Positions 1 through 51,388 of a stretch of DNA of 64,000 nucleotides are shown here, piece after piece. Under the pieces are notes generated by a model. The model saw only the letters and a program-made list of their open reading frames with translations, made no database searches and was not told the origin of the DNA. This DNA comes from a bacterium (GTDB taxonomy: Bacteria > Electryoneota > RPQS01). The translations under genes were made by a program, and so were the position numbers. Each line of letters starts with the position of its first letter. Position 1 is the stretch's first letter. Location of the stretch: assembly GCA_018814465.1 (NCBI GenBank), contig JAHIZR010000228.1:173-64172 (forward strand), read 5' to 3'.

Positions 1-482
1 ATGCCTGCCCGCAAACCACAACTGTGCATATCTATTGTCTGGATTGCGCCACACTGTAGCTGACCGATGCCTGCCCGCAAACCACAACTGCGTTATCGCA
101 TCGCCCTGCTGCCGATTGACTGTAGCTGACCGATGCCTGCCCGCAAACCACAACTTTACTGTCGGAATGTACGCACGGTCTTTTACTGTAGCTGACCGAT
201 GCCTGCCCGCAAACCACAACATGGCGGCTGGCATTAAGTGTCTCGTAAGTACTGTAGCTGACCGATGCCTGCCCGCAAACCACAACCCTGTCACTCACTT
301 GGATATAGGCTGTCAACTGTAGCTGACCGATGCCTGCCCGCAAACCACAACACCTGCACCCGCGACGATTGCCGCACCGAAACTGTAGCTGACCGATGCC
401 TGCCCGCAAACCACAACCGTTTCCTGCGGGTTATTAGCAGCACGGGACTGTAGCTGACCGATGCCTGCCCGCAAACCACAAC
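1..482. CRISPR. CRISPR array: 8 copies of the 36-bp repeat ACTGTAGCTGACCGATGCCTGCCCGCAAACCACAAC (first copy truncated at the window edge; full copies at 53, 119, 185, 251, 316, 382, 447) and 7 spacers of 29-30 bp. It continues upstream of the window. No cas genes in the window.
   Basis: Identical repeats and unique spacers read directly. The reverse complement GTTGTGGTTTGCGGGCAGGCATCGGTCAGCTACAGT has the GTTGT...GCTACA(A/G)T shape of type II-C repeats, and the 36/30 geometry also fits type VI-B. Confidence 0.93.
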
Positions 483-501
483 CAGCGCCGCAATAGAGTT
501 C

Positions 502-1620
502 TTAGATACCGCTCAGCGCTTCCTTGGGAAGCGGTAGATCGGCGCTGGCTTTCACTTCAAGACGCTTTAGCATTGCAAGGTTTCGAATCGTCAAAGCCAC
601 TTCAGGTTTTTGCAGCGGAGGACGACGATGCTCTTTCCATGCCATGACCTCCCTAAGGACATCCTGCTCTGTAGGAGTATTTTTTGTGCGCATCGCAAGC
701 TCGTTTCCAGCAAATAGAACAGTGGCTACAATTTCCGCTTGCTGAGTACGCAATCTAACAAAGAGATCGGCTACATTATCCAGAGTTTTTTCCCAATCCG
801 ACAAGTGTTTAGCATATTCCTCCTTAGCGACTTCGTACGATGGCCCCACGCGCACCGCAAGCATCTGGCCTAATCGATTTTCGACAATCAGGCGATGATT
901 CATCAGGCGACTCTCGAGTCCCTTCAAACCTTCAGCGAATGGGCCGTAGCTTCCGCGCCGGAATTCCAATCCCGTCGGGATCCCCTGTAGGGTCGCTACA
1001 TAGGCAATTTTCTGGAACATGACGCGCCCGACCGGCCAGTGATATGGCTCGTCCTCGATTCGCTTCAAGATATCGACTAAGGCGATCCATGCCGGATTGA
1101 TCCGTTCCTTATAAGTATCGGGACGCACAACGCCCGTTCCAGTGTCCAGGAAGCTCAGCTGCATCTCCTCGCAAGGAGTACCGTGCGGCGCATATAACTC
1201 AACGTCAATTTCGAGGCGTTTAAGATAGCGGTTAAGTATGGGACCGACAATTCGCCATTCCAATCCGCCAAGTCCGCTTCCGAGCGGCGGAACTGCGATG
1301 GATTCGATGCCCCACGTTTTGTAGTGTGTTAGCAGGAATTCGAGCCCTTTTTCAATGTCCTCTATTCGCGAGAGCGAACGCCAGTGATCCTTTGTTGGGA
1401 AATTCAGAATCCAGCGATCCGGACTTGACTTGAAGAGATAGGGCTCCCCCAACTTGACTTCTCCTCGTTTACAACGGGTAGTGTAATCGGCGAACATCGC
1501 GGGATAGCGATTCTTGAACTCGAGCGCAATGCCTTTGCCCATCACGCCCACACAGTTGACAGTGTTAACAAGTGTTTGAGCTTTGGAAGCGAAAAGGTCG
1601 CCTGACATTACTTTGAGCAT
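502..1620 (-). CDS. darG: DarG antitoxin (N-terminal macrodomain ADP-ribosyl hydrolase plus C-terminal DarT-binding domain)
   Basis: Macrodomain motif NTVNCVGVMGKGIALEFKNRYP. 372 aa. Lies immediately downstream of darT on the same strand. Confidence 0.85.
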   Translation of the reverse strand: MLKVMSGDLFASKAQTLVNTVNCVGVMGKGIALEFKNRYPAMFADYTTRCKRGEVKLGEPYLFKSSPDRWILNFPTKDHWRSLSRIEDIEKGLEFLLTHYKTWGIESIAVPPLGSGLGGLEWRIVGPILNRYLKRLEIDVELYAPHGTPCEEMQLSFLDTGTGVVRPDTYKERINPAWIALVDILKRIEDEPYHWPVGRVMFQKIAYVATLQGIPTGLEFRRGSYGPFAEGLKGLESRLMNHRLIVENRLGQMLAVRVGPSYEVAKEEYAKHLSDWEKTLDNVADLFVRLRTQQAEIVATVLFAGNELAMRTKNTPTEQDVLREVMAWKEHRRPPLQKPEVALTIRNLAMLKRLEVKASADLPLPKEALSGI

Positions 1621-1632
1621 GATCGAGTTTCT

Positions 1633-2235
1633 CTATTTGAAGAACATTCTTGCATTAACAGTGATTGCCAACGTTGGTGCAAGCGCAGCGAGTCTTCGCC
1701 GAGCAGAATCGCACGAAACGTAGGCTCCCACAATATAATTATCCGGAATGACATTTGGAACCAAAACCTCAGCACACATTCTCGATTTGTGCTCCCATTC
1801 GGCAACTTCGTTTCCCGGATGTTTCCATGATTCTGCGAAGGTATCATTGCCAACCAGCGACAACCCGCTCGATGAAGGGCGGAATCTCGCATATTCGCTG
1901 GAAGCGTTGCGATCCGTAAAAACGACGTTAGGAAGATCAACCACAGTTGGTGAAATCTTCAGTACACAGAGTTCATCGCCAGAGCAAATACCTCCGTGGA
2001 TATCCTTGTACATCATCGGATTCCGCGCGTTGAAGTAGAGATTCACATAATCATGCAAGCGCATGCCCCCTGGAACCACTATAATCTTTCGGCGATCTTG
2101 AATCTCTGGCATAGCAACAGATCTATGCCTGATCTTACAAACACCCGTATGTGAAAGAATGCCGTGCGACAAGATCGACGGTACGTTTTCAATCGCGGTG
2201 ATGTAGTGTAGCTCTGACAGCCGAGATCGTTCCAC
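1633..2235 (-). CDS. darT: DarT ssDNA thymidine ADP-ribosyltransferase toxin (DUF4433). Start codon appears to be GTG.
   Basis: N-terminal HYITxxxNxxSIL motif, VFTDR motif and C-terminal catalytic Glu region (CAEVLV) typical of DarT. About 200 aa. Paired with a macrodomain gene. Confidence 0.82.
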   Translation of the reverse strand: MERSRLSELHYITAIENVPSILSHGILSHTGVCKIRHRSVAMPEIQDRRKIIVVPGGMRLHDYVNLYFNARNPMMYKDIHGGICSGDELCVLKISPTVVDLPNVVFTDRNASSEYARFRPSSSGLSLVGNDTFAESWKHPGNEVAEWEHKSRMCAEVLVPNVIPDNYIVGAYVSCDSARRRLAALAPTLAITVNARMFFK

Positions 2236-2457
2236 AATTACAAGTTGTTAACAGTAGTATTTACATAGATTCATTATGCGAGCGAGTGCTGAAGGGTTCT
2301 TCTGGCGGTTGCAACAGGAGGAGGCTTCGGCGGGAGGAAAAGGAGGGTAAGTTGCCGAGGATTCCCCAAATACAACTTTATCTTACGGCTAACACGGGGT
2401 CAGCCCAATTGCGCAATCTTGACTGGTAGGTCGGACATTAGTATATTGAACACGTGT

Positions 2458-2862
2458 TCAACTTTTCGCGGGTAAGTCTTGAATAAACTTGATAATACCT
2501 CTTCCGGCTTCCACCATTGTTTTTCGGATCAGATTCAGCCGTTCATCATCGATTTCAACGTTTTCGGGGAGGTCGAGTTCGACAACCAACCTTCGCCGCT
2601 TGGTGAGCTTCGTCTCCGCCTGAGACTCGAGGAAGTAGTCTTCGGAGAGTCCTAATGCACTGGCTATAAGACGTAGCGTGCTTTCGTTTGGCTTCCTCGC
2701 ACCGCGTTGAATAGCTAGTAGAGTTTTATCGGATAGTCCTGTTTTTTCTGAAATACGCTTTTTCGCTCCCCATTGCGAAAGCGCAAACTCTAAATCGCTA
2801 TGTTTTTTAATATCCAGCATATAAGAAAAATTTACAGACTTAAATCTGTATTCTATTGACAA
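2458..2862 (-). CDS. XRE/Cro-CI family HTH transcriptional repressor (putative prophage repressor)
   Basis: HTH segment ISEKTGLSDKTLLAIQRG. Divergent from the Cro-like gene at 2990. Confidence 0.7.
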   Translation of the reverse strand: MSIEYRFKSVNFSYMLDIKKHSDLEFALSQWGAKKRISEKTGLSDKTLLAIQRGARKPNESTLRLIASALGLSEDYFLESQAETKLTKRRRLVVELDLPENVEIDDERLNLIRKTMVEAGRGIIKFIQDLPAKS

Positions 2863-2884
2863 AACAGATTTATTACCGTATATT
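2856..2884 (+). promoter_or_regulatory. Sigma70-like promoter (TTGACA-17 nt-TATATT) for the rightward early operon, overlapping ACAGAYTTA operator-like repeats (2834-2849 and 2864-2872)
   Basis: Consensus hexamers with 17-nt spacing read from the sequence. A near-palindrome ACAGACTTAAATCTGT lies adjacent. Confidence 0.45.
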
Positions 2885-2989
2885 GGTTTAGAATCAAATC
2901 AAAACCCCCGACACCTGAGAAATCTTGCCGGATTGCAGGCGACGGGGGCAAAGCTAACCAACAGGGGCTTTGCGCTCCCAGAGGTCTGA

Positions 2990-3310
2990 ATGAAATATAA
3001 AGTAAAGAATGGGCATTGTCAACCTAAGATTTCACTCGACTTAACGAGTAAACAGGTTTGCGAGCTGCTGGGGGTGACGGCCAATTGGCTGAAGAGTCAC
3101 GGTCACCTCTTCAAGCGGCGTCAGCAACCGGGCCGGGGGCGGAACGGGCTGGAGTGGCGTTATGATCGAGCGAATGTAGAATCGTATCGCCGTCACGGAT
3201 ATAGCGAGACCGAACTCGTCGAAAATCCGTATCACGGCAAATCCGTCGCGGAAATCGCGGCGATAGCTAAGGAGAGAGTCAGGCGCGGCCTTGTGAGCAC
3301 AAGCTCATAG
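2990..3310 (+). CDS. Cro/excisionase-like small HTH DNA-binding protein
   Basis: Segment QVCELLGVTANWLK looks like an HTH. It is the first gene of the rightward operon, opposite the repressor. Confidence 0.5.
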   Translation: MKYKVKNGHCQPKISLDLTSKQVCELLGVTANWLKSHGHLFKRRQQPGRGRNGLEWRYDRANVESYRRHGYSETELVENPYHGKSVAEIAAIAKERVRRGLVSTSS

Positions 3311-3364
3311 GGTTCGCGCTTTTTTGTTTTTGATCGAATCCACCAACCCAACGGAGAATGCCAG

Positions 3365-3592
3365 ATGATGATCGAAGAATTCGAACGGATCGAACATGAC
3401 GGAAAGATTTCCGGGGAGCAAGTCAAGGAACTGATCGCGGATGCAATTGAGGGCGCGTACGGCGAACGGCACGAAGTAACCGATCGCGAACTCATCGACT
3501 TTTTCAAATGGGCGACGGAGATGTTTGGACAAGGGGGATGCGAACTTAACGATTTCACGGCACGGTTTCTTATCGCAACTAAGCGCGTTTAA
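3365..3592 (+). CDS. Small acidic hypothetical protein (75 aa)
   Basis: ORF with an RBS-like GGAGAA upstream. Acidic composition. Confidence 0.5.
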   Translation: MMIEEFERIEHDGKISGEQVKELIADAIEGAYGERHEVTDRELIDFFKWATEMFGQGGCELNDFTARFLIATKRV

Positions 3593-3643
3593 GCGCCTTG
3601 CAGGTTTTTAAATAATCCTACCACCCCAAAAAGCGAGAATGCC

Positions 3644-3970
3644 ATGAAGCTTTACAGATTCGAACGAGGAGACAAGGTCCGCCGCCGCGCGGAGTGCGGC
3701 GCGGCGAATCATCCCGCAATCGTCGAAGTGCTCGAATGCGACGAGTTCTGCCTTCGGTTCATCGGCGCTGGGGTTGATCATTTCGGAATTTACGATCCGG
3801 CAAACTATGAACTGGTCGAAGGCGAATGCAGCTACTGCAATGGGATCGGGCACGTCCTCGGGCGCTATTACGGCGAGGGGGAATTCGAGCGGCACACCTG
3901 CCTCGTTTGTCACGGCACGGGCCGGCTCAATTACGATGCATTGAAGGAAGCGAAAGGGATCGCGGCATGA
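3644..3970 (+). CDS. Hypothetical protein with a DnaJ-type CxxCxGxG zinc-finger pair
   Basis: CSYCNGIGH...CLVCHGTGR. Confidence 0.55.
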   Translation: MKLYRFERGDKVRRRAECGAANHPAIVEVLECDEFCLRFIGAGVDHFGIYDPANYELVEGECSYCNGIGHVLGRYYGEGEFERHTCLVCHGTGRLNYDALKEAKGIAA

Positions 3971-4332
3971 TTCGCATACTATTAGTCGAGGACGAACAGT
4001 CCATCCGCGAACCTTTCGCCGAGTTACTCCGCGAGTACGACTACATGGTAGTCACTGCGAATAATGGCTTGACGGCGGCGCAGTATCTCGAAATCATCCC
4101 GATTGATCTGGTCATCACCGACTCGGATATGCCGCTCTGCGACGCGATCGAATTGACGCGCCGAATTCGCAGAGCGAGCGCGGCCCTGCCGGTGATCGCG
4201 ATCTCCGGTGAATGGCAGAACGAAAAGCCGATGATGGAGGCGGGCGCGAATGCGTTTCTGCTGAAGCCGGTCGAAATCGAAGTGCTGATTGGAATGATTG
4301 AAGAGCTCACGAAGAAAGGAGTGGCGGCATGA
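3967..4332 (+). CDS. Stand-alone CheY-like response-regulator receiver (REC) domain protein
   Basis: MIRILLVEDE acidic pocket, DLVITD phospho-acceptor Asp and a conserved Lys in LLKP. ATGA overlap with the upstream gene. The ORF-track alternative at 3826 overlaps its neighbour heavily. Confidence 0.7.
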   Translation: MIRILLVEDEQSIREPFAELLREYDYMVVTANNGLTAAQYLEIIPIDLVITDSDMPLCDAIELTRRIRRASAALPVIAISGEWQNEKPMMEAGANAFLLKPVEIEVLIGMIEELTKKGVAA

Positions 4333-4616
4333 CAAAGGTAGTTCATGTTGAGTTCGATGATTGCGGGGCGGGGTGCCCGTTTCTTGAAAGTACTGAAGGT
4401 GTCAGCGGAGATTTTAACGGATACAGATGTAGAAGGCTCTGGAAAGAAATTTACTTTTCTTCCGGAGTATTCCCTGATGACTGCCCACTGCCGGACAAAG
4501 AAGAACCTGAACTCCCGCCCTGCGAACTGTGTGGAGAGCATATCGCGGGTGGCGAATTTGAGGGTCTTTACATTTGCGGAGATTGCTATCAAGAATTAGA
4601 GTTGCCGACCGATTAA
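4329..4616 (+). CDS. Cys-rich hypothetical protein (putative zinc ribbon)
   Basis: Several CxxC pairs. ATGA overlap with the REC gene. Confidence 0.55.
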   Translation: MTKVVHVEFDDCGAGCPFLESTEGVSGDFNGYRCRRLWKEIYFSSGVFPDDCPLPDKEEPELPPCELCGEHIAGGEFEGLYICGDCYQELELPTD

Positions 4617-4628
4617 GGAGCAGACACG

Positions 4629-5447
4629 ATGATTAAGTACATCAATCAATCACTTTTAAACCTGCATGCCAAATGCGGGATTGCAGCGGAATACCGGGTA
4701 TCAGGGCTCATCATCCCCCCTGCCGCCGCCGCGCATCGCGGCACGGGCGTGCACCGCGCGGCGGAGGCGGACGCGCGGCGGATTCAGTTGAGCAGCGACC
4801 GCTTGACCATTCCGGAATTGCAGGACGCCGCCGCGACCGCGTTTTGTGAGAGCGTCGAGAAACACGGCGTGTATCTGAGCGCCGAGGACGCTCCGCAAGC
4901 GCGAGTTATTCTCGGGCAGGCGAAAGATGAAGCCGTGCGCGCTGCCGCGCTCTACGGCGAACGGGTTAGCCCGCGCATCGGCCAGCCCGTTCATATCGAG
5001 GAAGAGATCGTCGTGCAGATGGACGGATTGGATTATCCACTTGGCGGTACGCTCGATCTCGTTCATCTCGTCACCGCCGGTTACAAAATCACCGATTTAA
5101 AAACGACGGGCAAGGCGCCCGATCCGTCCGTCGCGACCCATTCGATTCAAGCGCCGATGTACGAGCTGCTGGCCGAGCGGGCCTTGGGGTTAAAGCCGTC
5201 GTTCGAGTTCGAGTTCATCAAGCTGCTGAAAACGAAATCCGAGACGATCACGATCCCGGCCGTCTTTACGCCGCAGACGCGCGCGAACCTGCTGCAACGG
5301 GCCAGTGTCTTCGAAGCGCATTTGCAATCCGGGGTGTTCACTCCGGCGGCGCCGGGATCGTGGTGGTGCTCAGAATCTTGGTGCGGCTATTACGGGATTT
5401 GCGCGCACGGCGCGAAGCAGTCCTGCCAGATCGCGATGAGCGCGTAG
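4629..5447 (+). CDS. PD-(D/E)xK exonuclease of the Cas4/RecB/AddB type with an Fe-S cysteine cluster
   Basis: DLVHL...ITDLKT nuclease motifs. One N-terminal Cys and a C-terminal CSESWCGYYGIC cluster. AAGGAG RBS. Confidence 0.7.
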   Translation: MIKYINQSLLNLHAKCGIAAEYRVSGLIIPPAAAAHRGTGVHRAAEADARRIQLSSDRLTIPELQDAAATAFCESVEKHGVYLSAEDAPQARVILGQAKDEAVRAAALYGERVSPRIGQPVHIEEEIVVQMDGLDYPLGGTLDLVHLVTAGYKITDLKTTGKAPDPSVATHSIQAPMYELLAERALGLKPSFEFEFIKLLKTKSETITIPAVFTPQTRANLLQRASVFEAHLQSGVFTPAAPGSWWCSESWCGYYGICAHGAKQSCQIAMSA

Positions 5448-5510
5448 GCTTACGGGTAATTTGAATTGAATCACTTTCACAATCATACTGACTTAAGGAG
5501 AGTACAGATC

Positions 5511-6794
5511 ATGACAGATCAGAACAGCAACGGTCGGGAATTTGAGAATATCCCGATTGTAACGCCGGAAGTCGTCGAGCGCATGTCGGGCGGCGTCAAC
5601 GGTGTCGGCGACATTGTCGCTTCCGGACGGACGATTGAGCAGATCCGGTCGAAATATCACACAGCGGTGCGCGTACAGGTCGCGCGCGATCTGGATTCAG
5701 TGAAGAAGCGCTGTTTGCAGGAGGCGAAGCACGGCGGCGATGAGTTCGGTTGGGCATGGCCTGTCGAGATTCCGGTGAAGGACGAGCGCGGCCAGATCAA
5801 GAAGGATGCGAACGGCAGATGGATCACGAAGGAAGAGATTATCGACGGCAAGAGCGTGCATCTCGCGATGGCCGCCGCGCGCAACTGGGGCAATTGCACG
5901 ACCGAGTTGTACGTGACTGCCGACCTGCCGGATCGCTGCGAACTCATGGGCGTGTTTGTGGATTTCGAGACGGGGTATACGAACATGCGGCCTTATACGA
6001 TTCGGAAGGCGTCGCGAGAACTATCCGAGAAGCAGAAGAAGAAGGCTTCGCAAATCGCGCGGCAGGAGGATATGACCATGCAGATCGGACTATCCAAGTG
6101 CATTCGCAACGTCGTGTTGGGCGCGTTGCCATCGTGGCTGACCGATTCGATGTACGAGGAATCGAAAAAGTACGCCAAGTCCCGCGTCGAGGCAAATCTC
6201 AAGGAATCCATCGAGCGCGCGGTCGCATTGTTCGCCAAATGGGACGTCAATCTGGACCGGCTGGAGATTTTCCTCGATAAACCGCGCTCGAACGATCCTA
6301 AAACGGATTGGAACGCCGACGATGTCTTGAAGTTGCGCGCGGCCTATCAGGCGATTAAAGACGGCGATATGACGATTAGCGAGGCGTTTCCAGCGGTGCC
6401 CGGAGCGCCGATGGCAAAACCCACCGCAACACAGACGACCGCGCCAGAGACGCGAACGCCGCCGCCGCAACCTACGCAACCTGCGGAACCTCCGCACCCC
6501 GCCGCACCGCCGACGCAGACGGCGGCGCAACCGCACGACCCAGACGGCAGCTTGACTGAGGAGCAGGGCGCGATGCTCGACGAGATCAACGCGCGCGCGG
6601 GCTTGATCAGCGCCGATCCGAAGATTCAGCGGGATACGATCTTTCTCTGGAGCGGGCAAACCTGCCGGGGCACGCTCGAACTGCGCAATAAGCCGAACTA
6701 TATCATTCCGACGCTTGATGCCGCGCGGGCCGATTGCGAGGCGCGCGGGCTTCAGCTCGCCGGACAAGGGCCGAAGAAAGGAAAACTTCTGTGA
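5511..6794 (+). CDS. Putative recombination / single-strand-annealing protein with a Pro-rich linker (function uncertain)
   Basis: Sits between the nuclease and the SMC-like ATPase. AAGGAG RBS before the ATG at 5511 (the ORF track starts at 5466). No family recognised. Confidence 0.45.
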   Translation: MTDQNSNGREFENIPIVTPEVVERMSGGVNGVGDIVASGRTIEQIRSKYHTAVRVQVARDLDSVKKRCLQEAKHGGDEFGWAWPVEIPVKDERGQIKKDANGRWITKEEIIDGKSVHLAMAAARNWGNCTTELYVTADLPDRCELMGVFVDFETGYTNMRPYTIRKASRELSEKQKKKASQIARQEDMTMQIGLSKCIRNVVLGALPSWLTDSMYEESKKYAKSRVEANLKESIERAVALFAKWDVNLDRLEIFLDKPRSNDPKTDWNADDVLKLRAAYQAIKDGDMTISEAFPAVPGAPMAKPTATQTTAPETRTPPPQPTQPAEPPHPAAPPTQTAAQPHDPDGSLTEEQGAMLDEINARAGLISADPKIQRDTIFLWSGQTCRGTLELRNKPNYIIPTLDAARADCEARGLQLAGQGPKKGKLL

Positions 6795-8077: not shown

Positions 8078-8424
8078 TTAGCTGCATCGTTCATCTCCGG
8101 CAGTGCCGTGCGCGCCGGGTTTCTGGCCGGGTCGTCATTGCTCGTTACACCCCCTTCCCGCCGGATTGTATGCCAGATAGTTGCCGGTGCCGGTGATGAA
8201 CTCCAAAAGAATAGTCTGCGCCTTCCACTCCGGCGCAAGCGCGATCATCGAGCGCTTATAAAAGCCGTGAGCGCCAGTCGGGAAAGCAATGCAGCCGACA
8301 ATCTCCCTGAAGCGCGCGGGGTGCGGGTATCGTGGAATTGGCATTCTCCGCCCGGCCTCGCGCGCAGACGGGATTACTCCGTCTTTATCGACTCTATACG
8401 AATTAACATAACGAGGAGCATAAC

Positions 8425-8718
8425 ATGGATGCACGCAAGTTCGCGGAATTCGACCGCAAAATCGCCGCCGCGCATTGCCTGCGCGAGGATATCGTCGCGG
8501 CGTGCCGGTCACTGCATATCGCGGCGCAACGCATCGAGCGGGGCGATTTCACTGACCTCGATTCGCTCGCCAATCATTATCAGTTCATCGTCGAGACGCA
8601 GGCGGAACTCGCCGCGAAATTGCAGAAGCTCGCCCTCGCCAGCGGCGCGACGTCCGTCGTGCCGGTCAGCGGCAACGGCAAGGTGGAATTCGCAAGCCCG
8701 GATCCGGCGAACCGGTAG
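8425..8718 (+). CDS. Hypothetical protein
   Basis: GAGGAG RBS. Phage early region. Confidence 0.5.
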   Translation: MDARKFAEFDRKIAAAHCLREDIVAACRSLHIAAQRIERGDFTDLDSLANHYQFIVETQAELAAKLQKLALASGATSVVPVSGNGKVEFASPDPANR

Positions 8719-8726
8719 TCAAGCTC

Positions 8727-9122
8727 GTGGATCGCTCCGTCTATACCGCCTTGATCGGCCTCTTTCGAGATCGCCCGCGCGAACTGGCGATCAAGCGCGC
8801 CGACATTCAAGCGCGCCTGCGGGAGCTCTGCGGCGTGGAGGTGCATGTGCGCGACATCCAAAGCCTTGTCGATCACATAGCGGCGAGCGAACACTGGTGC
8901 ATTATTTCGGAGGCGCGCGGCTATTGGCGGCTGAGCGAGCGGGCCTCCGCCGAGGAGCTCGAAGCCGCCGAACACTCCGTCAACACGTTGCGCGCGCACG
9001 CCGAGGCGGAACTGGAGAAAGCCAATCTGCGCGTGAAATGGATCGATTTGATCCGCGAACTGCGGGAACATCCTGAACGGCAAAACGCGCGCACGACACA
9101 ACAGGAACGGCTATTCTTATGA
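8727..9122 (+). CDS. Hypothetical protein (GTG start)
   Basis: Close-packed with its neighbours. Confidence 0.5.
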   Translation: MDRSVYTALIGLFRDRPRELAIKRADIQARLRELCGVEVHVRDIQSLVDHIAASEHWCIISEARGYWRLSERASAEELEAAEHSVNTLRAHAEAELEKANLRVKWIDLIRELREHPERQNARTTQQERLFL

Positions 9123-11487: not shown

Positions 11488-11975
11488 CGAAGCGCACTCC
11501 CGTCACGCGCGATACGCTGATCCGGCTCTGGAACGAGGAACCGCGCAAGGTGCCGCTCGCCGTAATGCTGACGACCGCCGAACTGGAGAGCGGGATCGGG
11601 TCCGGCAGGTACGACGCGACCGCCGAGCGTTATGAAGAGCACTTGAAGGCGCGGCGGCAGGATTGGTCGGCGGCGGATTGCACGAGCTACGGTTTGTTTC
11701 AGATACTTGGCATTAACTGGCGATCCATCGGCATAGAGTACGCGATCTACCCGGATCAACACATCGTCTTCGTCGCTGGCACGTCGCCGCTCTCGCTCGA
11801 TGATCTGCTTCGCGTGCAGATGCGAGCCTATGACCGGTTCATGGGCGCGCTAATCCGCAAGCACGGACTGCCCAAGGCGTTTCGGATCTATAATGGAGCC
11901 GGACCGGCAGCAGACCGATATCGTGACCGCGCGCAGAAAGTACAGGCACGACTCACGAAGGATCTCGTCGCATGA
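11484..11975 (+). CDS. Putative DUF3380-type N-acetylmuramidase (endolysin candidate)
   Basis: Motif TSYGLFQILGINW resembles the SWGxxQIMGFN motif of DUF3380 muramidases. Start at the ATG at 11484. Confidence 0.45.
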   Translation: MTKRTPVTRDTLIRLWNEEPRKVPLAVMLTTAELESGIGSGRYDATAERYEEHLKARRQDWSAADCTSYGLFQILGINWRSIGIEYAIYPDQHIVFVAGTSPLSLDDLLRVQMRAYDRFMGALIRKHGLPKAFRIYNGAGPAADRYRDRAQKVQARLTKDLVA

Positions 11976-13663
11976 ACGAACTTAAATTTACGCTCGGAAC
12001 CGGCATCACTTCCCGCGCGGCGATTACGACCGACATCCATAAACTGATCGTGACGCGAATGGTGATTCAAGCGAATTCCGGCGCGGGTAAATCGCGGTCG
12101 ATGCGCAGAATCCTCGAACAATGCTTCGGGAACGCGCAGGAGATCGTGTTCGACCCGGAAGGCGAATTCGTTTCACTCGCGGAGAAATTTGACTTTCTCA
12201 TCGTCGGCAAGGGCGGTCATCTGCCGGTGCGCGTCGATACCGCCGAGCTGCTCGCCCTGAAGCTGCGGCAGTTGGGCATTTCCGCCGTGCTCGATCTTTC
12301 GGACCTCCGCCCGCTCGAACGCACAGCTTACATGAAGGTCTTTCTCAACTCTTTGATGCTCGCGCCGAAGGCTCCGGAACGGCCTTGCCTCGTGGCGATT
12401 GACGAGGCGGACATGTTCGCGCCGCAGAGCCGGGAGTCGCAATCCACGGAAGCGGTCGTCGATCTGTGCGTCCGGGGCCGCAAACGCGGTCTGTGCCCCA
12501 TTCTCGCGGTCATGCGGCTGTCGCAACTACACAAGGACGCGGCGGCGCAGTGCAACAACTACCTGATCGGACGCACCGCGCTCGACGTGGATATTCATCG
12601 CGTCGTCGACATTCTCGGCTTTCAGCGATCCCGGGACCGGGTCGCCACGCTGAAAACTCTGAAACCCGGCGAATTCTTTTTCTTCGGCCCGGCGAGCAGC
12701 TCGCACGACGTCGAACTGCTGAAAGTCGGTGACGTGCAAACCTATCACCCGGATGCCCGCGCGCGCGAGGTCAAGCCGGTATCGACGCAAAGCCCGGCGG
12801 TCAAAAAAGCGCTCGCGCAACTGCAGGATTTGGCGGAAGAGGCGGAAGAGAAGCGGCAGACCGAACAGCAGTTGCGGGACAAAATCCGCGAACTGGAAAC
12901 GCAAGTCCGATCTTTCGGGAAAAACGCCGCCGATCCGAAAATCTTAAGCGACTTGCGCAACCAGAATCTGCAACTGCGTGCCGAACTGAAAGCCATGCGG
13001 GCACGGTATCATTTCATCTTGACCGAGATGAATGTGATCAACGACAAAATGGCCGGACTGATCGAGCGCGAAAAGGCAGAGAACCTTGACGAGATCGCCG
13101 AGCTTCCGTTCATCGACGAGCCGCCTGCCGTTAGCCGTCAATCCGCTTTGGAGGCGGTCTCCCCCACGCCGTTATCGCACTACAGCCAGCAATCAACCAT
13201 CGATTCGCTGACGCCGCTGGCCGCGAAGTTGCTGCGCGCCGTCGTGCAATTCCATCCGAAGCCGGTGAAACTGCGCCGTGCCCTGCTCATCGCGGGTGTC
13301 TCCCCGCGAAGCAGCAACGTCGGGAAGTTCAAGAAAGACTTGGTCGCTCAGGGATATGTCGAGATCAACGGCCAATGGATCACCGCGACAAAGGCCGCGC
13401 TCGCGGCGGTCGGCGATTATACGCCCTTCCCCACCGACGCTAAGTCGATGATCGCCTCGGTTAAGTCGCTCTTCGATCCGAGCACGGCGAACCTGCTGGA
13501 AGCCATCTATCAGCACCCTGGACTCGTGAAGGGCGCGTTGCTGGACTTCGCGCAAATCAGCCGCACGTCGAGCAACGCCGGACGCTGCTTCAAGGAGCTC
13601 CGCGAATACGGCTTGATCGAACAGCGCGGCGAACGATTCTACTTGAGTGAGGAATTCAGTTAA
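11972..13663 (+). CDS. HerA/FtsK/DUF87-like P-loop NTPase with coiled coil and C-terminal winged-helix domains
   Basis: Walker A QANSGAGKSRS and Walker B LVAIDEADMF. A coiled coil follows, then repeated wH-like segments. Confidence 0.6.
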   Translation: MNELKFTLGTGITSRAAITTDIHKLIVTRMVIQANSGAGKSRSMRRILEQCFGNAQEIVFDPEGEFVSLAEKFDFLIVGKGGHLPVRVDTAELLALKLRQLGISAVLDLSDLRPLERTAYMKVFLNSLMLAPKAPERPCLVAIDEADMFAPQSRESQSTEAVVDLCVRGRKRGLCPILAVMRLSQLHKDAAAQCNNYLIGRTALDVDIHRVVDILGFQRSRDRVATLKTLKPGEFFFFGPASSSHDVELLKVGDVQTYHPDARAREVKPVSTQSPAVKKALAQLQDLAEEAEEKRQTEQQLRDKIRELETQVRSFGKNAADPKILSDLRNQNLQLRAELKAMRARYHFILTEMNVINDKMAGLIEREKAENLDEIAELPFIDEPPAVSRQSALEAVSPTPLSHYSQQSTIDSLTPLAAKLLRAVVQFHPKPVKLRRALLIAGVSPRSSNVGKFKKDLVAQGYVEINGQWITATKAALAAVGDYTPFPTDAKSMIASVKSLFDPSTANLLEAIYQHPGLVKGALLDFAQISRTSSNAGRCFKELREYGLIEQRGERFYLSEEFS

Positions 13664-14026: not shown

Positions 14027-14386
14027 ATGCCGATCCATTCTGACGACAAGCATCGCTACCCGCCGAACTGGAAGGTGATTCGCGCGGCGATTCTGAAACG
14101 CGCCACCAACAGCAACGGCGATCAGCAGTGCGAATGCCGCGGCGAATGCGGCTTGCATCACGGCAAGCGCTGCAGCGAATTGAACGGCTATCCGGCGGAA
14201 TGGGCGAAGGGCACGACCGTGCTCACGATTGCTCATCTCGATCACAACGCTGACCCTGATAACCACTCGGATGCTAACCTGAAGGCCATGTGCCAGAGGT
14301 GCCATTTACGGTATGATTCGAAGCAACATCAAGCGAATGCGCGAAAAACACGGCGCGCCAAGAAGGCGTGCGGAGAGCTTCTGTGA
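14027..14386 (+). CDS. HNH endonuclease
   Basis: Motif HLDHNADPDNHSDANLKAMCQRCHLRYD plus an upstream Cys pair. Confidence 0.75.
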   Translation: MPIHSDDKHRYPPNWKVIRAAILKRATNSNGDQQCECRGECGLHHGKRCSELNGYPAEWAKGTTVLTIAHLDHNADPDNHSDANLKAMCQRCHLRYDSKQHQANARKTRRAKKACGELL

Positions 14387-15237
14387 AATGGTTTAAGCAC
14401 GATACGGACGGTCACGAATCCGAAAAACTCGTTGCATTGAGATCAAAGTTTGGCTGGGACTGGCTGGCGCGCTGGTACGTGCTGCTCGAAATGGTGGCGG
14501 CTAAGATGGACGACTCCGACCGCTGTCATCTCGAATATCCGATCAAGGAATGGTGCTATCAGCTGGACTGTACTCCGCGCCAATTACTGGCGTTTATGAC
14601 CTATCTTGACGCCGAAAAAATTGGTGGAAGTACGGTCAAAGTTGACCCGGAGTTACTCCAAAGTTTCACCCAAAGTTCGCCTGAAGTTACTCCAAAGTTA
14701 CGTCAGAGTTCGGCTGAAGTATCGCCAAGGTTACGCCGAGATTCCGTGGCTATTACGTCTAAGTTACTTCGGATTGACATACCTAACCTGCTGAAAAAGA
14801 GAGATGATAGCTCTCGAAAAGTCCGGAAAAAGTCCAGTAAAAGTCCCGGCCAGAGCGTAGAGCGTAGAAATTCTTCTAACGAAGAATTAAAAGAGCGTAG
14901 AGCGAAGAGCGAAGAGCACGCAAACGATTCCGAACCGAACATCGCTCCATCGCCTTTTCCAAAACCTGAGTCGGAAGATCAGTTTTTGAACGATCTCGAC
15001 GAGTTCATGGATCAACTTAACGAAATCGTCAAGCTCACCGAACACGACCGGCGCGGTATTCGATTTGACATCCTCCAACGCGGCAAGAGTGACGACCTGT
15101 CATGGATTCTGGATCAACTACGAGCGGCTAAGACCGACGGGCGGTTGAACGTCGAGAAACACGGCATCCGAAACGCTACGGCGTTCATTCGCAGCAAGAT
15201 TCAGGAGCTGTCCGGGAACAAACCACAAGGCCCTTAG
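14368..15237 (+). CDS. Putative phage replication initiator (Lin1244/DUF4373-like N-terminal domain). The gene contains iteron-like repeats.
   Basis: N-terminal segment WFKHDTDGHESEKLVALRSKFGWDWLARWY resembles the DUF4373-like N-terminus of phage initiators. Periodic AAGTT repeats and an AT-rich stretch lie within the gene. Confidence 0.5.
   Translation: MRRASVKWFKHDTDGHESEKLVALRSKFGWDWLARWYVLLEMVAAKMDDSDRCHLEYPIKEWCYQLDCTPRQLLAFMTYLDAEKIGGSTVKVDPELLQSFTQSSPEVTPKLRQSSAEVSPRLRRDSVAITSKLLRIDIPNLLKKRDDSSRKVRKKSSKSPGQSVERRNSSNEELKERRAKSEEHANDSEPNIAPSPFPKPESEDQFLNDLDEFMDQLNEIVKLTEHDRRGIRFDILQRGKSDDLSWILDQLRAAKTDGRLNVEKHGIRNATAFIRSKIQELSGNKPQGP
14650..14930. repeat. Candidate phage origin of replication: about 8 phased copies of CNAAGTTAC, 3 copies of GAAAAGTCC, AGAGCGTAG repeats and an AT-rich stretch, all inside the initiator gene
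   Basis: Direct repeats at roughly 10-12-bp spacing read from the sequence. Confidence 0.5.
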
Positions 15238-19822: not shown

Positions 19823-21235
19823 ATGCACAACAATCATAACACGTTGAACGGGTTTCCCGTGAAACACTGCCGACTCGATGAACTTACGAAAGCAAGCTGG
19901 AATCCGCGCCAAATCAGCGATGAGCAAAAAGCAGCCTTGCAACGCTCATTGGAAACCTTCGGCGTCGTCGAACCCATCGTCTACAACGAGGTGACCGGAC
20001 ACGTGGTGGCCGGACATCAGCGGCTCGACGCGCTAATCGCGAATGGCGAGACCGAAACCGACGTGGTCGTCGTTCAACTCGACGAGACGCGCGAGAAGCA
20101 GCTCAACGTCGCGTTGAACCGGATCAGCGGCGAATGGAATTACGATCTGCTGCAGGAACTGTTCGCCGACTTACAAGCCGAGGGCGCGGATTTGTCGCTG
20201 ACCGGGTTCAGCACCGCCGAGCTCGACGATTTGCTCGCTCCAGTCCCGAGCGCCGCGACCACTCCCGAACTCACGGAAGAACAAGCAGGCCATCTGAATC
20301 GCGCTTGGCAGGAATGGGCGCAGGATACGCTCAAGTTCATCGACCTGCTCGCGCCGCACGGCGTCGTCTCGCATAACTGCACTCCGGCGATTGCCCGCGT
20401 TCATTTCCTGCGCGCGCTGTATCAAGGCGAACGCTATCCGCGCTGGTGCTCGCATGCGTTTCACCCGCGCCAGCTGCACGTTGCCGGACACGCGCATAGC
20501 ATGGTGGACGCGCTCAAGTTCTTCGCCGAAGATCCGACGCTGGAATACGGCGACTCCTTCCGCTGGTGCCTGAAGGACCGGCCGTCCATCGACGTGATTC
20601 TCGCGCAGAGCCTGCCGCTCGGCAGTTGCCGGATCGCGCCGGACTTTCCGGCGGATCTGGCGCGCGACTTGATCGACGAATTCTGCCCGGCAGGCGGGGC
20701 GGTGCTGGATCCCTGTCACGGCTGGGGCGGACGGCTCGTCGGCTTCCTGCTCAGCCGCGCCATGGCTTACACCGGCTTCGATCCGGCGGAAGCCACGCAC
20801 ACCGGCACGAAAAAACTCTTCGCGGATTTTTCCCGCTTCACGCCCGGCAAGCAAGTCGACTTCCAGTGCCGCTGCTTCGAGGAAAGCGAACTCGAACCGG
20901 AAAGCTTCGATTTCGCGCTCACCTCCCCGCCCTATTTCAACGTCGAAAAATACGAGGGCGAGGACTCCAGCCACCGCAAGTACAAACAGTTTCAAGTCTG
21001 GGACGCCTGCTTCTACCACGAACTGATCGCGCGCACGGCGCAAGCGCTTAAACCGCACGCCGTCTTCGCATTGCAAGTCGGCAATCAGAAACACCCGCTC
21101 GAACAGCGCGCGAAAGAGCACGCGCAGCGGTGCGGCTTGACCTATCTCGAAACGCGCGCGTCGGGCATGACGAATAACTGGACGGAGACGCCGGAAGCGG
21201 ACGGCGAAGTCGTCGTGCTCTTTCGCAAAGGATGA
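19823..21235 (+). CDS. ParB-like nuclease domain fused to a DNA methyltransferase (N6A/N4C family, SPPY motif)
   Basis: N-terminal VVAGHQRLDAL ParB motif. FxGxG-like DPCHGWGG and catalytic LTSPPYFN. Confidence 0.75.
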   Translation: MHNNHNTLNGFPVKHCRLDELTKASWNPRQISDEQKAALQRSLETFGVVEPIVYNEVTGHVVAGHQRLDALIANGETETDVVVVQLDETREKQLNVALNRISGEWNYDLLQELFADLQAEGADLSLTGFSTAELDDLLAPVPSAATTPELTEEQAGHLNRAWQEWAQDTLKFIDLLAPHGVVSHNCTPAIARVHFLRALYQGERYPRWCSHAFHPRQLHVAGHAHSMVDALKFFAEDPTLEYGDSFRWCLKDRPSIDVILAQSLPLGSCRIAPDFPADLARDLIDEFCPAGGAVLDPCHGWGGRLVGFLLSRAMAYTGFDPAEATHTGTKKLFADFSRFTPGKQVDFQCRCFEESELEPESFDFALTSPPYFNVEKYEGEDSSHRKYKQFQVWDACFYHELIARTAQALKPHAVFALQVGNQKHPLEQRAKEHAQRCGLTYLETRASGMTNNWTETPEADGEVVVLFRKG

Positions 21236-34412: not shown

Positions 34413-37312
34413 TGGCCCGCGCACTCTCCGCCAATGTCGCCACCGGAATTCAAGGCGGCAACGCCGTTCCGATCTGGCTGATCAACGCCACGGCGCGGCG
34501 CAAGAGCGACGGCGCGACCGTCGCGTTCAAATGGAGCACGGCGGCAGACAGCGGCCTCTCCGAGTTCACCACCGGGCGCATCGCGCAAGGCGGCTTGAAA
34601 CCGGTCAAGTTTCGCTGCGACGTCACGCACGGCGGCAATATCGCCGACGTGGATCCGTGGGGTTTCGACCTGCTCAACGGCGATGCTTTCTGGGCGAATA
34701 CGCTCAGCGGCTATCAATTCGAGAACCGCCCGGTTGAACTACGGCTGATCTTCGGGCGCGTCCCCGGCGTGTCCTGGGACAACGCCGCGCCCGTCTTCAC
34801 CGGCTATACCGAAGATCTCGGCATCACGCCGCGGCGCATCGCTTTTCAATGCGTCGGCAGCTGGCACGCCGTGCATCGCGAACTCCCGAAGGAGCTCGTC
34901 GCGGGGATCGACTCCATCGAACTGGTCAAAGGCAAGCAGGGTTTTCCGAAGCAGCTGATTTACGGCGATTATAATTATCGAGCGATCAACCGCGACGGCT
35001 TAGGCTATTTCCCCTCGCCCTCCGGTCTCGTCCATTACGGCTTGCGCGACGTCTGCAAAGTCGATCTGATCTCGCATAAGGAAATCCTCTACGCCGATCA
35101 CGAATTGCATACCGCGCATCTCGGCTATGAGGGCGGGGGAACCGACAGCATCCGGCTCTACAAGCAGGAGTCGGTCGTCAACGGTTTCGTTTCCTGCCAG
35201 TCGCAGATCGACACGACGCAGGACTACTTTCACGGCGAGCGCGGCTACCACGGACAAGACGTGCTGCAATTGTTTTACGCCGACGAGATCAGTCATGTCC
35301 CAGCGGTGGATGCCGCACACAGCTCGATTCAGAACCCCGCCTATTGCACGGACGAGGAGATCGGCAATTTCGCCATTTTCAAGCAAGCCGGAAGCAGCGC
35401 GAACTGCCTCAAGCTCGTGTTTCGCGAAAAAAGCGGCTGCAGCGGGTTGACATGGCACAATCTGATCCTGTACTGCACGCGGGACGGCGACGATCCGCTC
35501 TATTGCGAAATCAGCATGGCCGGCAAAGCCTCGCTCGGCCCGCTGCCGATCACGACCTACGGCAGCAACAACGTCTTCGCTGTCGATTTGTCCGACTGGA
35601 ATTTCGATGATGCGGATCCGCCGGAGCCGCTGCCCGATCCGGGCGTGCTCAGCGCGGACGTAATCGTCAAGCTCTGGGGCGAGCAGAGCGGCGGCTCGTT
35701 CAGCAACATTTATCTGCACCACGTCACGCTTAACACGCCACGCAATACGCTCGGCAGTCAAGGCGGACGCCGCGCCGAATCCGGCGATGTCTATGCCTGC
35801 GTGAAAGGCCGCAAGTTCAACGCCTGGATCGACGCCCCGAACCACGTCAACGCGCGGAACGCGGGCGAGTTGATTCAGAATCCTGCTTATATCATCGAAT
35901 CCCTGCTCGTCGATGAATGTCACCGGACGCCCGCGAATCTGGCCCGGGCTATCAGTTTCAACAGCGTGGCGGGGCTCTTCTGCTCTCACAACGACCTGCT
36001 GGCGTTCACGAGCAAATTTGCATTCGCCTGCTGGGTCTATCTGCCGTCCGCCCCGGCTTCAGTTTGCCCGCTGCTCCAAAAAAGCGGCACCATCGCTTGG
36101 CCGTACCGCTGGGCAATTGGCTCTGACCGTAAACCGTTTGTAGCCATAGGAAACGGAACTACTCAAACATCGTTCACGGCCACGAATGCTGTTCCGCTCA
36201 GCACGTGGACGCACATCGCGGTGGTTTATGACGGCAGTGCGCTTTATCACTACCTGAACGGCGCTCCGAACGGATCGCTGTCCGTTGCGCAAGCGGTCGC
36301 GGATGGCGGCGACGCCTTCTGGATCGGCTTCAACGGCTCCGTCTATGCGAATTGCCGCCTGGACGAACTGAAAGTCTGGGCAACTTCCAAGAACAGCGCT
36401 GAGATTGCGGCGGATTACAACAGCAACAACGGCGTCTTCGGCCAACCGGAGCAAGACCTCGTGCTGCTGTTTCACTTCGACGAAGGCCAAGGCCGCGACC
36501 TCCGCGACTGGGCGGAATCCGGCTTGCGCTTCGGCCTGTCCCCCGCCAGCGGCGCGAGCTTCGTCACCGGCAAAGTCAACGCGCCCCGGCAACTCCACGA
36601 ACTCAGTTTCGACACCTGCGCGCTCGCCCGCGAGTCGTGGAAGTTCGCCGGCGCCATCGCCGAAACTCAGAACAGCCGCGACGTCATCAAGGACATCTGC
36701 TACGAAGCGGGCTACGCCTACCTGACCCGCGCCGACGGACTCGAAGGCGTCGTCCAGATCGAACCGACGACCTCGCTCGGCTTCATCAGCGTAAGCGACG
36801 CGCTCATGGAGCGCGGCGGTAAGCAAACGACGCTAACCGTCGGGCGGGCGAAGCAGCAGGACGTCTACAACGAGTTCGTCTTGAAATACCGCAAGCTCGG
36901 CAACGACTACGACGGCGTCAAATACGTCATCAATCCGCTCGCCGGACAATACTCCGACCGCTGCAGCAACCTGTCCTCCGACGGCAGTACCTACTGGCTG
37001 AAGTGCCGCAGTTGCTACGTCGAACTCAATACCGTGCGGCGCTGGATCTACGAAGCCAAGTGGATCCGCGAGGACGCCACCGCCGAGGCGTTTCTGAAAT
37101 TTATGATCGCGCGGCTTGCGCGCCGCCCGTGGACGGTGAAATTCGAAACGTCGCTGAAACGGCTCGCCGACGAACTCCTCGATAACTGGAAAATCAACGT
37201 GAACGACTTGCCGACCGGCATTCGCAATTTCGCGCACTTCAAACTCATCGAACAAACCATCGACCCGAACACGAATCGCCTCAGCGAAACGTGGGTGGAT
37301 GTCGGCGTTTAA
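34412..37312 (+). CDS. Large tail fibre / host-specificity protein with a LamG (concanavalin-like) domain
   Basis: Motif WTHIAVVYDGSALYHYLNG...LDELKVW is typical of LamG domains. Confidence 0.65.
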   Translation: MARALSANVATGIQGGNAVPIWLINATARRKSDGATVAFKWSTAADSGLSEFTTGRIAQGGLKPVKFRCDVTHGGNIADVDPWGFDLLNGDAFWANTLSGYQFENRPVELRLIFGRVPGVSWDNAAPVFTGYTEDLGITPRRIAFQCVGSWHAVHRELPKELVAGIDSIELVKGKQGFPKQLIYGDYNYRAINRDGLGYFPSPSGLVHYGLRDVCKVDLISHKEILYADHELHTAHLGYEGGGTDSIRLYKQESVVNGFVSCQSQIDTTQDYFHGERGYHGQDVLQLFYADEISHVPAVDAAHSSIQNPAYCTDEEIGNFAIFKQAGSSANCLKLVFREKSGCSGLTWHNLILYCTRDGDDPLYCEISMAGKASLGPLPITTYGSNNVFAVDLSDWNFDDADPPEPLPDPGVLSADVIVKLWGEQSGGSFSNIYLHHVTLNTPRNTLGSQGGRRAESGDVYACVKGRKFNAWIDAPNHVNARNAGELIQNPAYIIESLLVDECHRTPANLARAISFNSVAGLFCSHNDLLAFTSKFAFACWVYLPSAPASVCPLLQKSGTIAWPYRWAIGSDRKPFVAIGNGTTQTSFTATNAVPLSTWTHIAVVYDGSALYHYLNGAPNGSLSVAQAVADGGDAFWIGFNGSVYANCRLDELKVWATSKNSAEIAADYNSNNGVFGQPEQDLVLLFHFDEGQGRDLRDWAESGLRFGLSPASGASFVTGKVNAPRQLHELSFDTCALARESWKFAGAIAETQNSRDVIKDICYEAGYAYLTRADGLEGVVQIEPTTSLGFISVSDALMERGGKQTTLTVGRAKQQDVYNEFVLKYRKLGNDYDGVKYVINPLAGQYSDRCSNLSSDGSTYWLKCRSCYVELNTVRRWIYEAKWIREDATAEAFLKFMIARLARRPWTVKFETSLKRLADELLDNWKINVNDLPTGIRNFAHFKLIEQTIDPNTNRLSETWVDVGV

Positions 37313-37335
37313 CTATTCTGCGGAGCACACAGCCT

Positions 37336-37632
37336 ATGGAATGGAATGCAATTTCAGCGCTCGGTCCGGTCGGATTATGCGCGGCGGTCATCGTCTATCT
37401 GTTTCTCAAGTACCCGCCGCGTTCCGACAAGGACGCGGGGAAACAGTTTGCCGCGCTCTATGACGAACTGCGCGACGATCGCGAGGAAGCCATGCGTCAG
37501 CAGCGCGAAATCTTCGACCGCTATATCAACCTCATGGAACGGCAGTCGGTGATTCTGGATCGCATCAGCGCGCGGCTCGAAGATCACATCGTTGAAGCTC
37601 GCCGCGAATGGGATCGGCGCAAGAATCAGTAG
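37336..37632 (+). CDS. Holin-like membrane protein with one N-terminal TM helix
   Basis: Hydrophobic segment ISALGPVGLCAAVIVYLFL. Confidence 0.45.
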   Translation: MEWNAISALGPVGLCAAVIVYLFLKYPPRSDKDAGKQFAALYDELRDDREEAMRQQREIFDRYINLMERQSVILDRISARLEDHIVEARREWDRRKNQ

Positions 37633-37641
37633 GAGAATCTC

Positions 37642-38121
37642 ATGCTGAAAAAGCTCTGGAAAAAATGCAACGGCAAGAAGCTCTGGACGGCGATATCCGT
37701 CGCGCTCGGCTACGGCGTCGGTATCGCCCGCGCCCGCTTCCCTTACCTCCCTTGGGACGAAATAATTATCCCCATCCTCTTGTCGCTCGGCGTGATCGGA
37801 GCCGGGCACAAGGTCGTTAAAACCCGATCACAGAACAGGAGAAACGACATGAAGAACATTATCGACTCACTGCTGCCGCTGATTCTGCCGATGATCGCGG
37901 ACTACGCCGACGGCGCCCTGCCTGAAGGCCCGAAGCGCTGGCTCTACGTCCAGATCGTCTCGCTCGGCACCGAAGGCCAAGCCTGGGTCCAAAAGACGCA
38001 GACCAGCCTCGACGACGCCGCGTGGCAGGCCTTCCTCGCGGAAGCCAAGCAGGAGTTCACGGAAGCCGGGCTCCCGGATTTCCCGGAGAAGCTCGACGCG
38101 TTCGTCAAGTTCGCGGCCTGA
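37642..38121 (+). CDS. Holin-like membrane protein with two TM helices
   Basis: Hydrophobic segments WTAISVALGYGVGIA and IIIPILLSLGVIGAG. Confidence 0.5.
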   Translation: MLKKLWKKCNGKKLWTAISVALGYGVGIARARFPYLPWDEIIIPILLSLGVIGAGHKVVKTRSQNRRNDMKNIIDSLLPLILPMIADYADGALPEGPKRWLYVQIVSLGTEGQAWVQKTQTSLDDAAWQAFLAEAKQEFTEAGLPDFPEKLDAFVKFAA

Positions 38122-38148
38122 GTCGAGTCGACTTGCTGACAAACAGAA

Positions 38149-38178
38149 CCGCCCGGGAACACTTCCCGGGCGGTTTTC
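38149..38178. terminator. Bidirectional rho-independent terminator between the convergent phage and host genes
   Basis: 11-bp stem CCGCCCGGGAA/TTCCCGGGCGG followed by TTTTC. Confidence 0.75.
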
Positions 38179-38201
38179 TAATCTAATCGAACAAGCAGCG
38201 C

Positions 38202-41156: not shown

Positions 41157-41171
41157 GGGTTTCCCCTATTG

Positions 41172-42122: not shown

Positions 42123-42127
42123 AATAG

Positions 42128-47366: not shown

Positions 47367-47442
<76 letters not shown>

Positions 47443-47492
47443 AATATAACTAATTAATTTAGCATATTATTCAGTCTTTGTCAAACAAAAAA

Positions 47493-47519
47493 CCTGCCCT
47501 CGAAAAGGCAGGTTTTTTC
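47493..47519 (-). terminator. Rho-independent terminator hairpin CCTGCC...GGCAGG flanked by A- and T-runs
   Basis: Read from the sequence. Confidence 0.6.
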
Positions 47520-47540
47520 AAATATTCCTATGCCCATGAA

Positions 47541-49351: not shown

Positions 49352-49360
49352 GCACAGGTT

Positions 49361-51373: not shown

Positions 51374-51388
51374 ACCCACCTAATCGAC

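Follow-up and report, generated by a model that had tools for sequence, protein, structure and literature searches.

A DarTG system and a CRISPR array next to the repressor of an uncultured temperate phage: a probable defence slot and a possible phage-borne array

The left end of contig JAHIZR010000228.1 (assembly GCA_018814465.1), from a bacterium of the Electryoneota, carries a CRISPR array, the toxin-antitoxin genes darT and darG, and the repressor of a tailed prophage. The stretch analysed, here called the window, comprises 64,000 nt of a source contig of 65,216 bp, so that at most 1.2 kb of assembled sequence lies outside it. Protein entries at NCBI identical to the DarG and the repressor of the window stem from the metagenome-assembled genome (MAG) of this contig, which encodes MBU0691508-MBU0691510. 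All four elements were present as described in the first-pass annotation, with the three genes co-oriented on the minus strand. The features of this region, by window position, are as follows.

1 to 482, no strand assigned: CRISPR array with eight identical 36-nt repeats, the first one cut by the window start, and seven complete spacers
483 to 501, no strand assigned: junction of 19 nt between the last repeat and the darG stop codon, read from the sequence; the adjoining repeat is perfect
502 to 1620, minus strand: darG antitoxin gene, 372 amino acids, with an N-terminal macrodomain and a C-terminal region
1633 to 2235, minus strand: darT toxin gene (thymidine ADP-ribosyltransferase acting on single-stranded DNA), 200 amino acids
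2236 to 2273, no strand assigned: junction of the putative cargo with the phage backbone, 38 nt from the end of conserved phage sequence to the darT start codon
2274 to 2457, minus strand: conserved phage backbone downstream of the repressor, common to the closest relative
2458 to 2820, minus strand: XRE/HTH_3 repressor gene, 120 amino acids in the NCBI call (Pfam HTH_3, 1e-5)
2821 to 2989, no strand assigned: immunity switch region with palindromic operators, a rightward promoter and a possible leader hairpin
2990 to 38121, plus strand: prophage body with tailed-phage modules, beginning with an HTH_17 Cro/Xis-like gene (2990-3310)

DarTG was recognized by a DarT-family toxin gene and, directly downstream after a gap of 12 nt, a gene for a macrodomain DarG. 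DarT matched PF14487 (2.4e-39) and the PADLOC DarT model (4.5e-37, residues 7-198 against model positions 10-195 of 196). DarG matched Pfam Macro (4.2e-18, residues 18-125) and the PADLOC DarG model (1.2e-94, model positions 1-327 of 329). The gene order, the spacing and the full-length PADLOC matches are those of known DarTG systems, and the two proteins are 57-80% identical to their nearest database homologues. The gap between darT and the repressor gene is 222 nt, and from the repressor to the array the minus strand has no predicted intrinsic terminator. Outside the source assembly, the nearest DarTG homologue (L007, 2603-5294; DarG 80% and DarT 73% identical) lies between the genes for an 871-amino-acid protein and a DUF1156 methylase-like protein; because the gene ends overlap, the L007 pair is part of a larger defence operon.

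The array extends off the window start. Its repeat, ACTGTAGCTGACCGATGCCTGCCCGCAAACCACAAC on the plus strand, occurs in seven complete copies and one truncated copy, all identical and spaced 65-66 nt apart, and the seven complete spacers (29-30 nt each) all differ from one another. At least three near-identical direct repeats of 23-50 nt with unique spacers of similar length define a CRISPR array, and this is what the locus contains. On the minus strand the repeat reads GTTGTGGTTTGCGGGCAGGCATCGGTCAGCTACAGT and has a type II-like appearance, starting with GTTGTGG and ending with GCTACAGT; these termini are complementary, and only in the minus-sense fold. The apparent sense strand of the CRISPR RNA (crRNA) is the minus strand, which is also the strand of the repressor and DarTG. 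The repeat looks like those of type II-C systems in length and termini, a type assignment by resemblance alone. In Neisseria meningitidis the type II-C repeat is GTTGTAGC...GCTACAAT. The present array shares with it the 36-nt repeat, the spacers of about 30 nt and similar complementary termini; it differs in having a -10-like TACAGT without the extended TG, and neither cas9 nor an anti-repeat accompanies it in the window, nor did the repeat have a match in Rfam. The exact repeat was absent from the viral, genome and metagenome contigs searched, and BLAST against phage and plasmid collections returned chance-level matches only. The 19-nt gap at the darG end is too short for a leader.

The open frame of the repressor reaches a TTG at 2862, and translation likely starts at the ATG at 2820. 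The switch region next to it contains palindromic operators at 2833-2850 (TACAGA-N6-TCTGTA) and 2863-2880 and a rightward, divergent early promoter (TTGACA-17-TATATT, 2856-2884). Repressor homologues 56-64% identical were found in two related phage loci, L011 and L034, each beside a homologue of the first early gene (52-73% identical). Both loci also preserve the switch region that separates these genes, and across the three phages the half-sites of the operators co-vary. Judged from these comparisons of sequence, the repressor is a phage gene. At its 3' end a promoter-like sequence on the plus strand (TTGACT-17-TATATT, 2419-2447) points into the gene; it would yield a transcript antisense to the repressor, and both hexamers are kept in the closest relative. 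The leader upstream of the first early gene (about 2925-2975) contains GCGACGGGGGCAAAGCTAACCA.C.GGGGCTTTGCGCTCC, is about 90% identical in L011 and recognizable in L034, and is conserved above the level of the flanking coding sequence. Its role may be that of a regulatory RNA or of a site bound by protein; a possible GCAAAGC/GCTTTGC hairpin lies beside the start codon, with a fold z-score of only -1.3.

Beyond the switch region the prophage body reads rightward. The HTH_17 gene is followed by genes for a receiver-domain protein, a PD-(D/E)XK nuclease, a phrog_3657 protein, an AAA_23 ATPase, RusA and a muramidase, then by those for a HerA-like ATPase, the terminase TerL, the portal, a ParB-methylase, a MuF-like protein and a protease-capsid fusion; the distal end encodes tail proteins (including tail tube-like proteins), the tape measure and a fibre. 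The prophage measures about 35.8 kb from the end of the backbone to the last gene. With its repressor, divergent promoter and operators and its complete packaging, head, tail and lysis modules, it has the hallmarks of a temperate tailed phage.

The first-pass annotation had described a phage of about 35 kb with every module except an integrase, and our searches bore this out. No integrase, resolvase or transposase family was matched in Pfam or PHROGs by any phage open reading frame of at least 250 amino acids or by most of those of 150-250 amino acids, and tblastn of the tyrosine integrases of two relatives against the 64 kb gave nothing (best E 0.32). The large open reading frames at 5466-6794, 8108-9076 and 14368-15237 were considered as cryptic integrases and set aside; they had no informative sequence match in Pfam, PHROGs or PDB, and the tblastn search was negative. 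A Mu-like transposable phage was rejected as well: genes for a transposase or a MuB-like protein are lacking, and the recombination module to which the AAA_23 ATPase belongs is widespread in actinophages.

Nor did attachment (att) repeats emerge at 2.3 or 38.2 kb, where none had been noticed before. Near the junctions we found one 9-mer, AAGTTGCCG (2349 and 38236), and a few 7-mers, all at chance level. The direct repeat of a right attachment site that the first-pass annotation had expected near 38.2 kb or at the tRNA-Pro gene was sought without success, as no direct repeat longer than 13 nt links positions 1-3600 with 36500-48500, an interval that includes tRNA-Pro, and 12- and 13-mers occurred at chance level. 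A TGACAAA(A)CAGA sequence found at 2857 and 38137 was rejected as an att core, being an operator-like half-site in the middle of the conserved switch region. The window thus contains neither an integrase or transposase belonging to the prophage nor flanking att repeats.

Comparison with related phages placed the left arm in context. The window prophage, L011 and L034 are three diverged phages with a common repressor, switch region and first early gene, and immediately downstream of the repressor, on its strand, each carries a defence system that differs from those of the other two. DarTG occupies this position in the window. In L011 it holds genes for a small membrane protein, a 300-amino-acid membrane protein and a caspase-like Peptidase_C14 protein, then NspV and a methyltransferase. 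L034-L036 are IMGVR_UViG_2713896713_000001, the closest relative (TerL 85%, portal 84%, capsid 82%, a 497-amino-acid tail protein 87%, fibre 73% and lysin 76% identical), which carries a type I Druantia system there (DruA1, a 972-amino-acid protein, DruD1 and an 1835-amino-acid DruE1) together with a DruK-like PD-(D/E)XK nuclease, a YunG-domain protein and a TPR protein. Related phages carry unrelated defence systems at the same backbone position, which is what identifies a defence hotspot. On the repressor side the slot is flanked by 184 conserved nt; its integrase side was seen in one relative only.

That relative encodes a 356-amino-acid tyrosine integrase (PF00589, 3.5e-18) on the strand of its repressor, 15.7 kb away and beyond the cargo, so that the order is integrase, about 15.7 kb of defence genes, repressor and early genes. 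No recombinase lies between its repressor and terminase, and in both it and the window phage the stretch from the repressor to the tail genes is free of integrase genes. In L010, a distant relative with a common nuclease module, the integrase and repressor genes share one base at their overlap, with no cargo in between, and Cro-like and HTH_17 genes diverge from this pair. The window phage and its closest relative both have excisionase-type HTH_17 genes, which imply integrase-dependent excision. We infer that the integrase of the relative is that phage's own and that the window prophage has one too.

The backbone itself continues past the repressor. Homology with the closest relative runs for 184 nt beyond the repressor stop codon, to 2274, and ends 39 nt before darT; its local alignment score was 43, compared with 12.8 +/- 1.9 (maximum 21) in 300 shuffles, and it includes a conserved block, TTTTCCTCCCGCCGAAGCCTCCTCCTG, at 2315-2341. 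Because the backbone runs almost to darT, because the slot contents vary among the relatives and because the integrase lies distal to the cargo in the closest of them, we consider DarTG to be most likely prophage cargo, an assignment drawn from gene order and homology.

The slot of the closest relative has one further feature. A 71-nt copy of the 5' end of its integrase gene, 85% identical and with an in-frame stop codon, is located 992 nt upstream of where the real integrase starts (L038, 18544-18614 and 19536-19606), and the two copies flank the gene for the TPR protein. This duplication looks like the footprint of cassette exchange beside the integrase. Searches for more members of the group yielded little: scans of metagenome and viral contigs with the repressor as anchor gave no hits, one that used the integrase of the closest relative recovered only that relative itself, and searches of cultured phages gave distant matches only. 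Neither the accession of the MAG nor the IMG genome identifier turned up in the literature.

Taken together, we favour with some confidence a left arm made up of the left attachment site (attL), the integrase, a variable defence slot, the repressor and the divergent early operon, with DarTG filling the slot here. The window would then contain the lysogeny arm of an integrated temperate tailed phage, whose integrase and attL would lie beyond the array, past the end of the assembled contig; no att repeat is expected in 1-3600 under this layout, because attL would be outside the window. The earlier proposal that the integrase lies beyond the window start gains from the distal integrase of the closest relative, and the window itself offers neither integrase nor attL in its favour. 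An integrase at the far end of the cargo would also place the array inside the prophage. The claim that DarTG and the array are both cargo fared unevenly: the comparison with relatives upholds the DarTG part, and the array part was neither shown nor refuted. We regard an array inside the prophage as close to evenly balanced, leaning slightly against, and the full picture of a temperate phage with a multi-spacer, type II-like array in its integrase-repressor arm next to DarTG as a tentative suggestion, somewhat more doubtful still. The closest relative, with a near-identical capsid protein, extends about 50.7 kb from integrase to last gene. Set against the 35.8 kb of the window phage, this gives a weak argument from size that there may be room for a further 10-15 kb of cargo; the phage might also carry cas genes, as compared with that relative about 10-15 kb of room for packaged DNA is not accounted for.

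In a lysogen, DarTG would most likely be expressed, because it is co-oriented with the repressor, lies near the end of the backbone and is separated from it by no predicted terminator; judged from this arrangement, co-expression with the repressor is plausible. According to the mechanism described in the DarTG literature, DarT would ADP-ribosylate thymidines in the single-stranded DNA of an infecting phage and so block its replication, and the DarG macrodomain would remove the modification and neutralize DarT, leaving the toxin harmless in the lysogen. Expression of the pair would thereby protect host and prophage from superinfecting phages. Transcription of a repressor-DarTG operon could also read into the array in the lysogen, if no terminator intervenes.

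The array and DarTG might instead form a host chromosomal defence island, with the prophage ending at about 2274, some 184 nt beyond the repressor. The prophage would then be defective, its integrase arm lost, or would have been integrated by a recombinase encoded elsewhere, and its relatives would lie beside defence genes since phages and islands pile up at the same hotspots. Several observations favour this alternative and weigh against an integrase-slot-repressor arm. No integrase or attL of the window prophage itself was seen. DarTG and the array are host-like in G+C content at third codon positions (GC3; darG 0.54 and darT 0.49, with 0.45 for the repressor), and the closest DarTG homologues (75-80% amino acid identity) lie among ordinary host genes or in defence operons or islands, outside prophages. 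Homology with the closest relative stops sharply, as it would at an attL junction too. In that relative the whole left arm is host-like (GC 0.50 compared with 0.57), a GmrSD-type gene (GmrSD_N) begins only 45 nt past the integrase, the defence region may extend further than the integrase, and att sites were not found, no 12-mer being common to the contig ends. The array, moreover, looks like an ordinary multi-spacer host array with no spacer match to the phage or its relatives. Against this, a host island requires three independent phage lineages to have come to lie next to defence systems that differ in all three cases and yet each run in the direction of the repressor, and leaves two diverged phages with excisionase-like genes but no integrase. 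It also lacks an att core that would link 2236-2470 with 38110-38210 beyond the chance-level 9-mer and 7-mers, and the integrase of L010 sits exactly where the cargo sits in the window. We therefore judge a host island unlikely.

A mixed arrangement, with DarTG as cargo and the array as host DNA, would put the left end of the prophage in the 19 nt between darG and the array, either because the integrase and attL were lost in a deletion that joined the arm to a neighbouring host array or because the phage integrated beside one. This seems to us quite unlikely. By chance, an end of the prophage or of a deletion would have to coincide with the 19 nt next to the darG stop codon, adjacent to a complete repeat; a prophage that lacks its integrase would be stranded, and the closest relative has its integrase at the far end of the cargo. 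The arrangement does draw on the rarity, to our knowledge, of multi-spacer arrays on temperate phages, on the 19 nt after the last repeat, which could be a truncated spacer, and on the end of the contig inside the array, as often happens with population-variable host arrays. Further caveats on a phage-borne array came from the searches, which found no cas gene, no leader and no anti-repeat of a trans-activating crRNA longer than 14 nt in the 64-kb window. Matches that would mark the spacers as aimed at competing mobile elements were likewise not found, either above 19 nt (with 2 mismatches) in the resident prophage and 40 fetched loci or among 50,697 phage records. The integrase-slot-repressor arm remains the reading we prefer, with the array as its least secure part.

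Prophage-borne DarTG, defence slots and virus-borne arrays are all already known; the phage lineage is previously undescribed and uncultured, and the finding is unusual only if the array is confirmed as phage-borne. Variable defence hotspots in temperate phages and their satellites are well established in P2/P4 and in the integrase-repressor region of mycobacteriophages. As in those hotspots, a conserved backbone here flanks a slot that holds unrelated defence systems of atypical GC on the lysogeny side. The differences are that this is another, uncultured phage lineage, for which no close cultured relative was found, and that the slot lies between integrase and repressor with a capacity of about 16 kb, enough for a complete type I Druantia system, its integrase-side flank being known from one relative. 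DarTG acts in anti-phage defence, as stated in the passage of PMC9836087 that cites LeRoux et al. (2022), and its location on a prophage has been reported before, in Desulfovibrio piger prophage 11311_P3 (PMC12724379). The present system differs from known ones in its uncultivated host with type IX secretion, its 57-80% identity, the CRISPR array on one flank and in being known here from sequence.

CRISPR arrays on phages also occur in Clostridioides difficile prophages and in Vibrio phage ICP1. If it lies inside the prophage, the array described here would likewise be a viral one, probably serving against competing elements. Virus-borne mini-arrays have 1-2 spacers (PMC6858448), whereas the present array has at least seven, none of which matches relatives of the carrier phage, and its location inside the phage is putative. 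The first-pass annotation had called a phage-borne array notable; it would be, though not unprecedented. Should the array prove to lie inside the prophage, this would be one of few temperate phages with a sizeable array, we know of no earlier type II-like phage-borne array in this host group, and the prophage could give its host adaptive as well as innate immunity. The uncultured lineage appears to use the integrase-repressor stretch as an exchangeable defence slot, filled by DarTG, type I Druantia or a caspase/restriction set. Such slots shift immune systems among bacteria and are a good hunting ground for new defence genes.

The right side of the prophage is delimited by the following features.

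38122 to 38201, no strand assigned: right junction, 80 nt, with a GC-rich hairpin terminator (38146-38178)
38202 to 41156, minus strand: host secreted-protein gene (Pfam Por_Secre_tail and FlgD_ig), GC3 0.51

The phage has a GC content of about 0.60 and a GC3 of 0.65-0.82, including the last gene, and the host flank has a GC3 of 0.37-0.61. The first host gene rightward, at 38202-41156, codes for a protein that bears a C-terminal sorting domain of type IX secretion. Because GC3 separates the last phage gene from this host gene, the right end of the prophage falls within 38122-38201, and the att core must be located there or extend into the ends of the genes on either side. L003 and L004, independent assemblies from one and the same population as the window, span the right junction at 100% identity, and the junction is therefore not an assembly chimera.

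Positions 2894-5679, 37679-41419 and 46846-57029 are represented in two fragmented assemblies of this population, GCA_018822485.1 and Logan SRR2540949, and none of the contigs retrieved from them covers the repressor, DarTG or the array. One contig of each (L001 and L033, respectively) begins exactly at 2894, in the AT-rich switch region, and no identical repressor or DarG protein was found from either source. These contig starts may reflect a coverage gap or a coexisting phage variant with a different immunity region. Position 2894 was rejected as a phage end, since L011 and L034 are conserved straight across it, and both assemblies may share reads. Contigs of three assemblies also stop in or just past the last phage gene, at 37679, 37789 and, by equivalence, about 37843.

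The early operon of the phage includes a stand-alone response-regulator receiver domain without an output domain (3968-4332; PF00072, 1e-21), a 563-amino-acid HerA/DUF87-like ATPase (11972-13663) directly follows the lysin, and a ParB-like N-terminal domain is fused to a DNA methyltransferase (19823-21235) between the portal and MuF-like genes. The last phage open reading frame (37642-38121, 159 amino acids) is an apparent read-through fusion of a 66-amino-acid membrane protein and a 90-amino-acid protein; the latter part has its own AGGAGA-ATG at 37849, and a TAG stop codon separates the two genes in the closest relative. On the host side, the flank at 38.2-46.8 kb is low in GC (0.43-0.48) and contains four large genes, at least two of them with type IX sorting domains. 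No repeat of the end of the tRNA-Pro gene (47368-47442) was found near the left side of the prophage. This gene is followed by one for a small HTH protein (47541-47981) with weak TnsD-like similarity.

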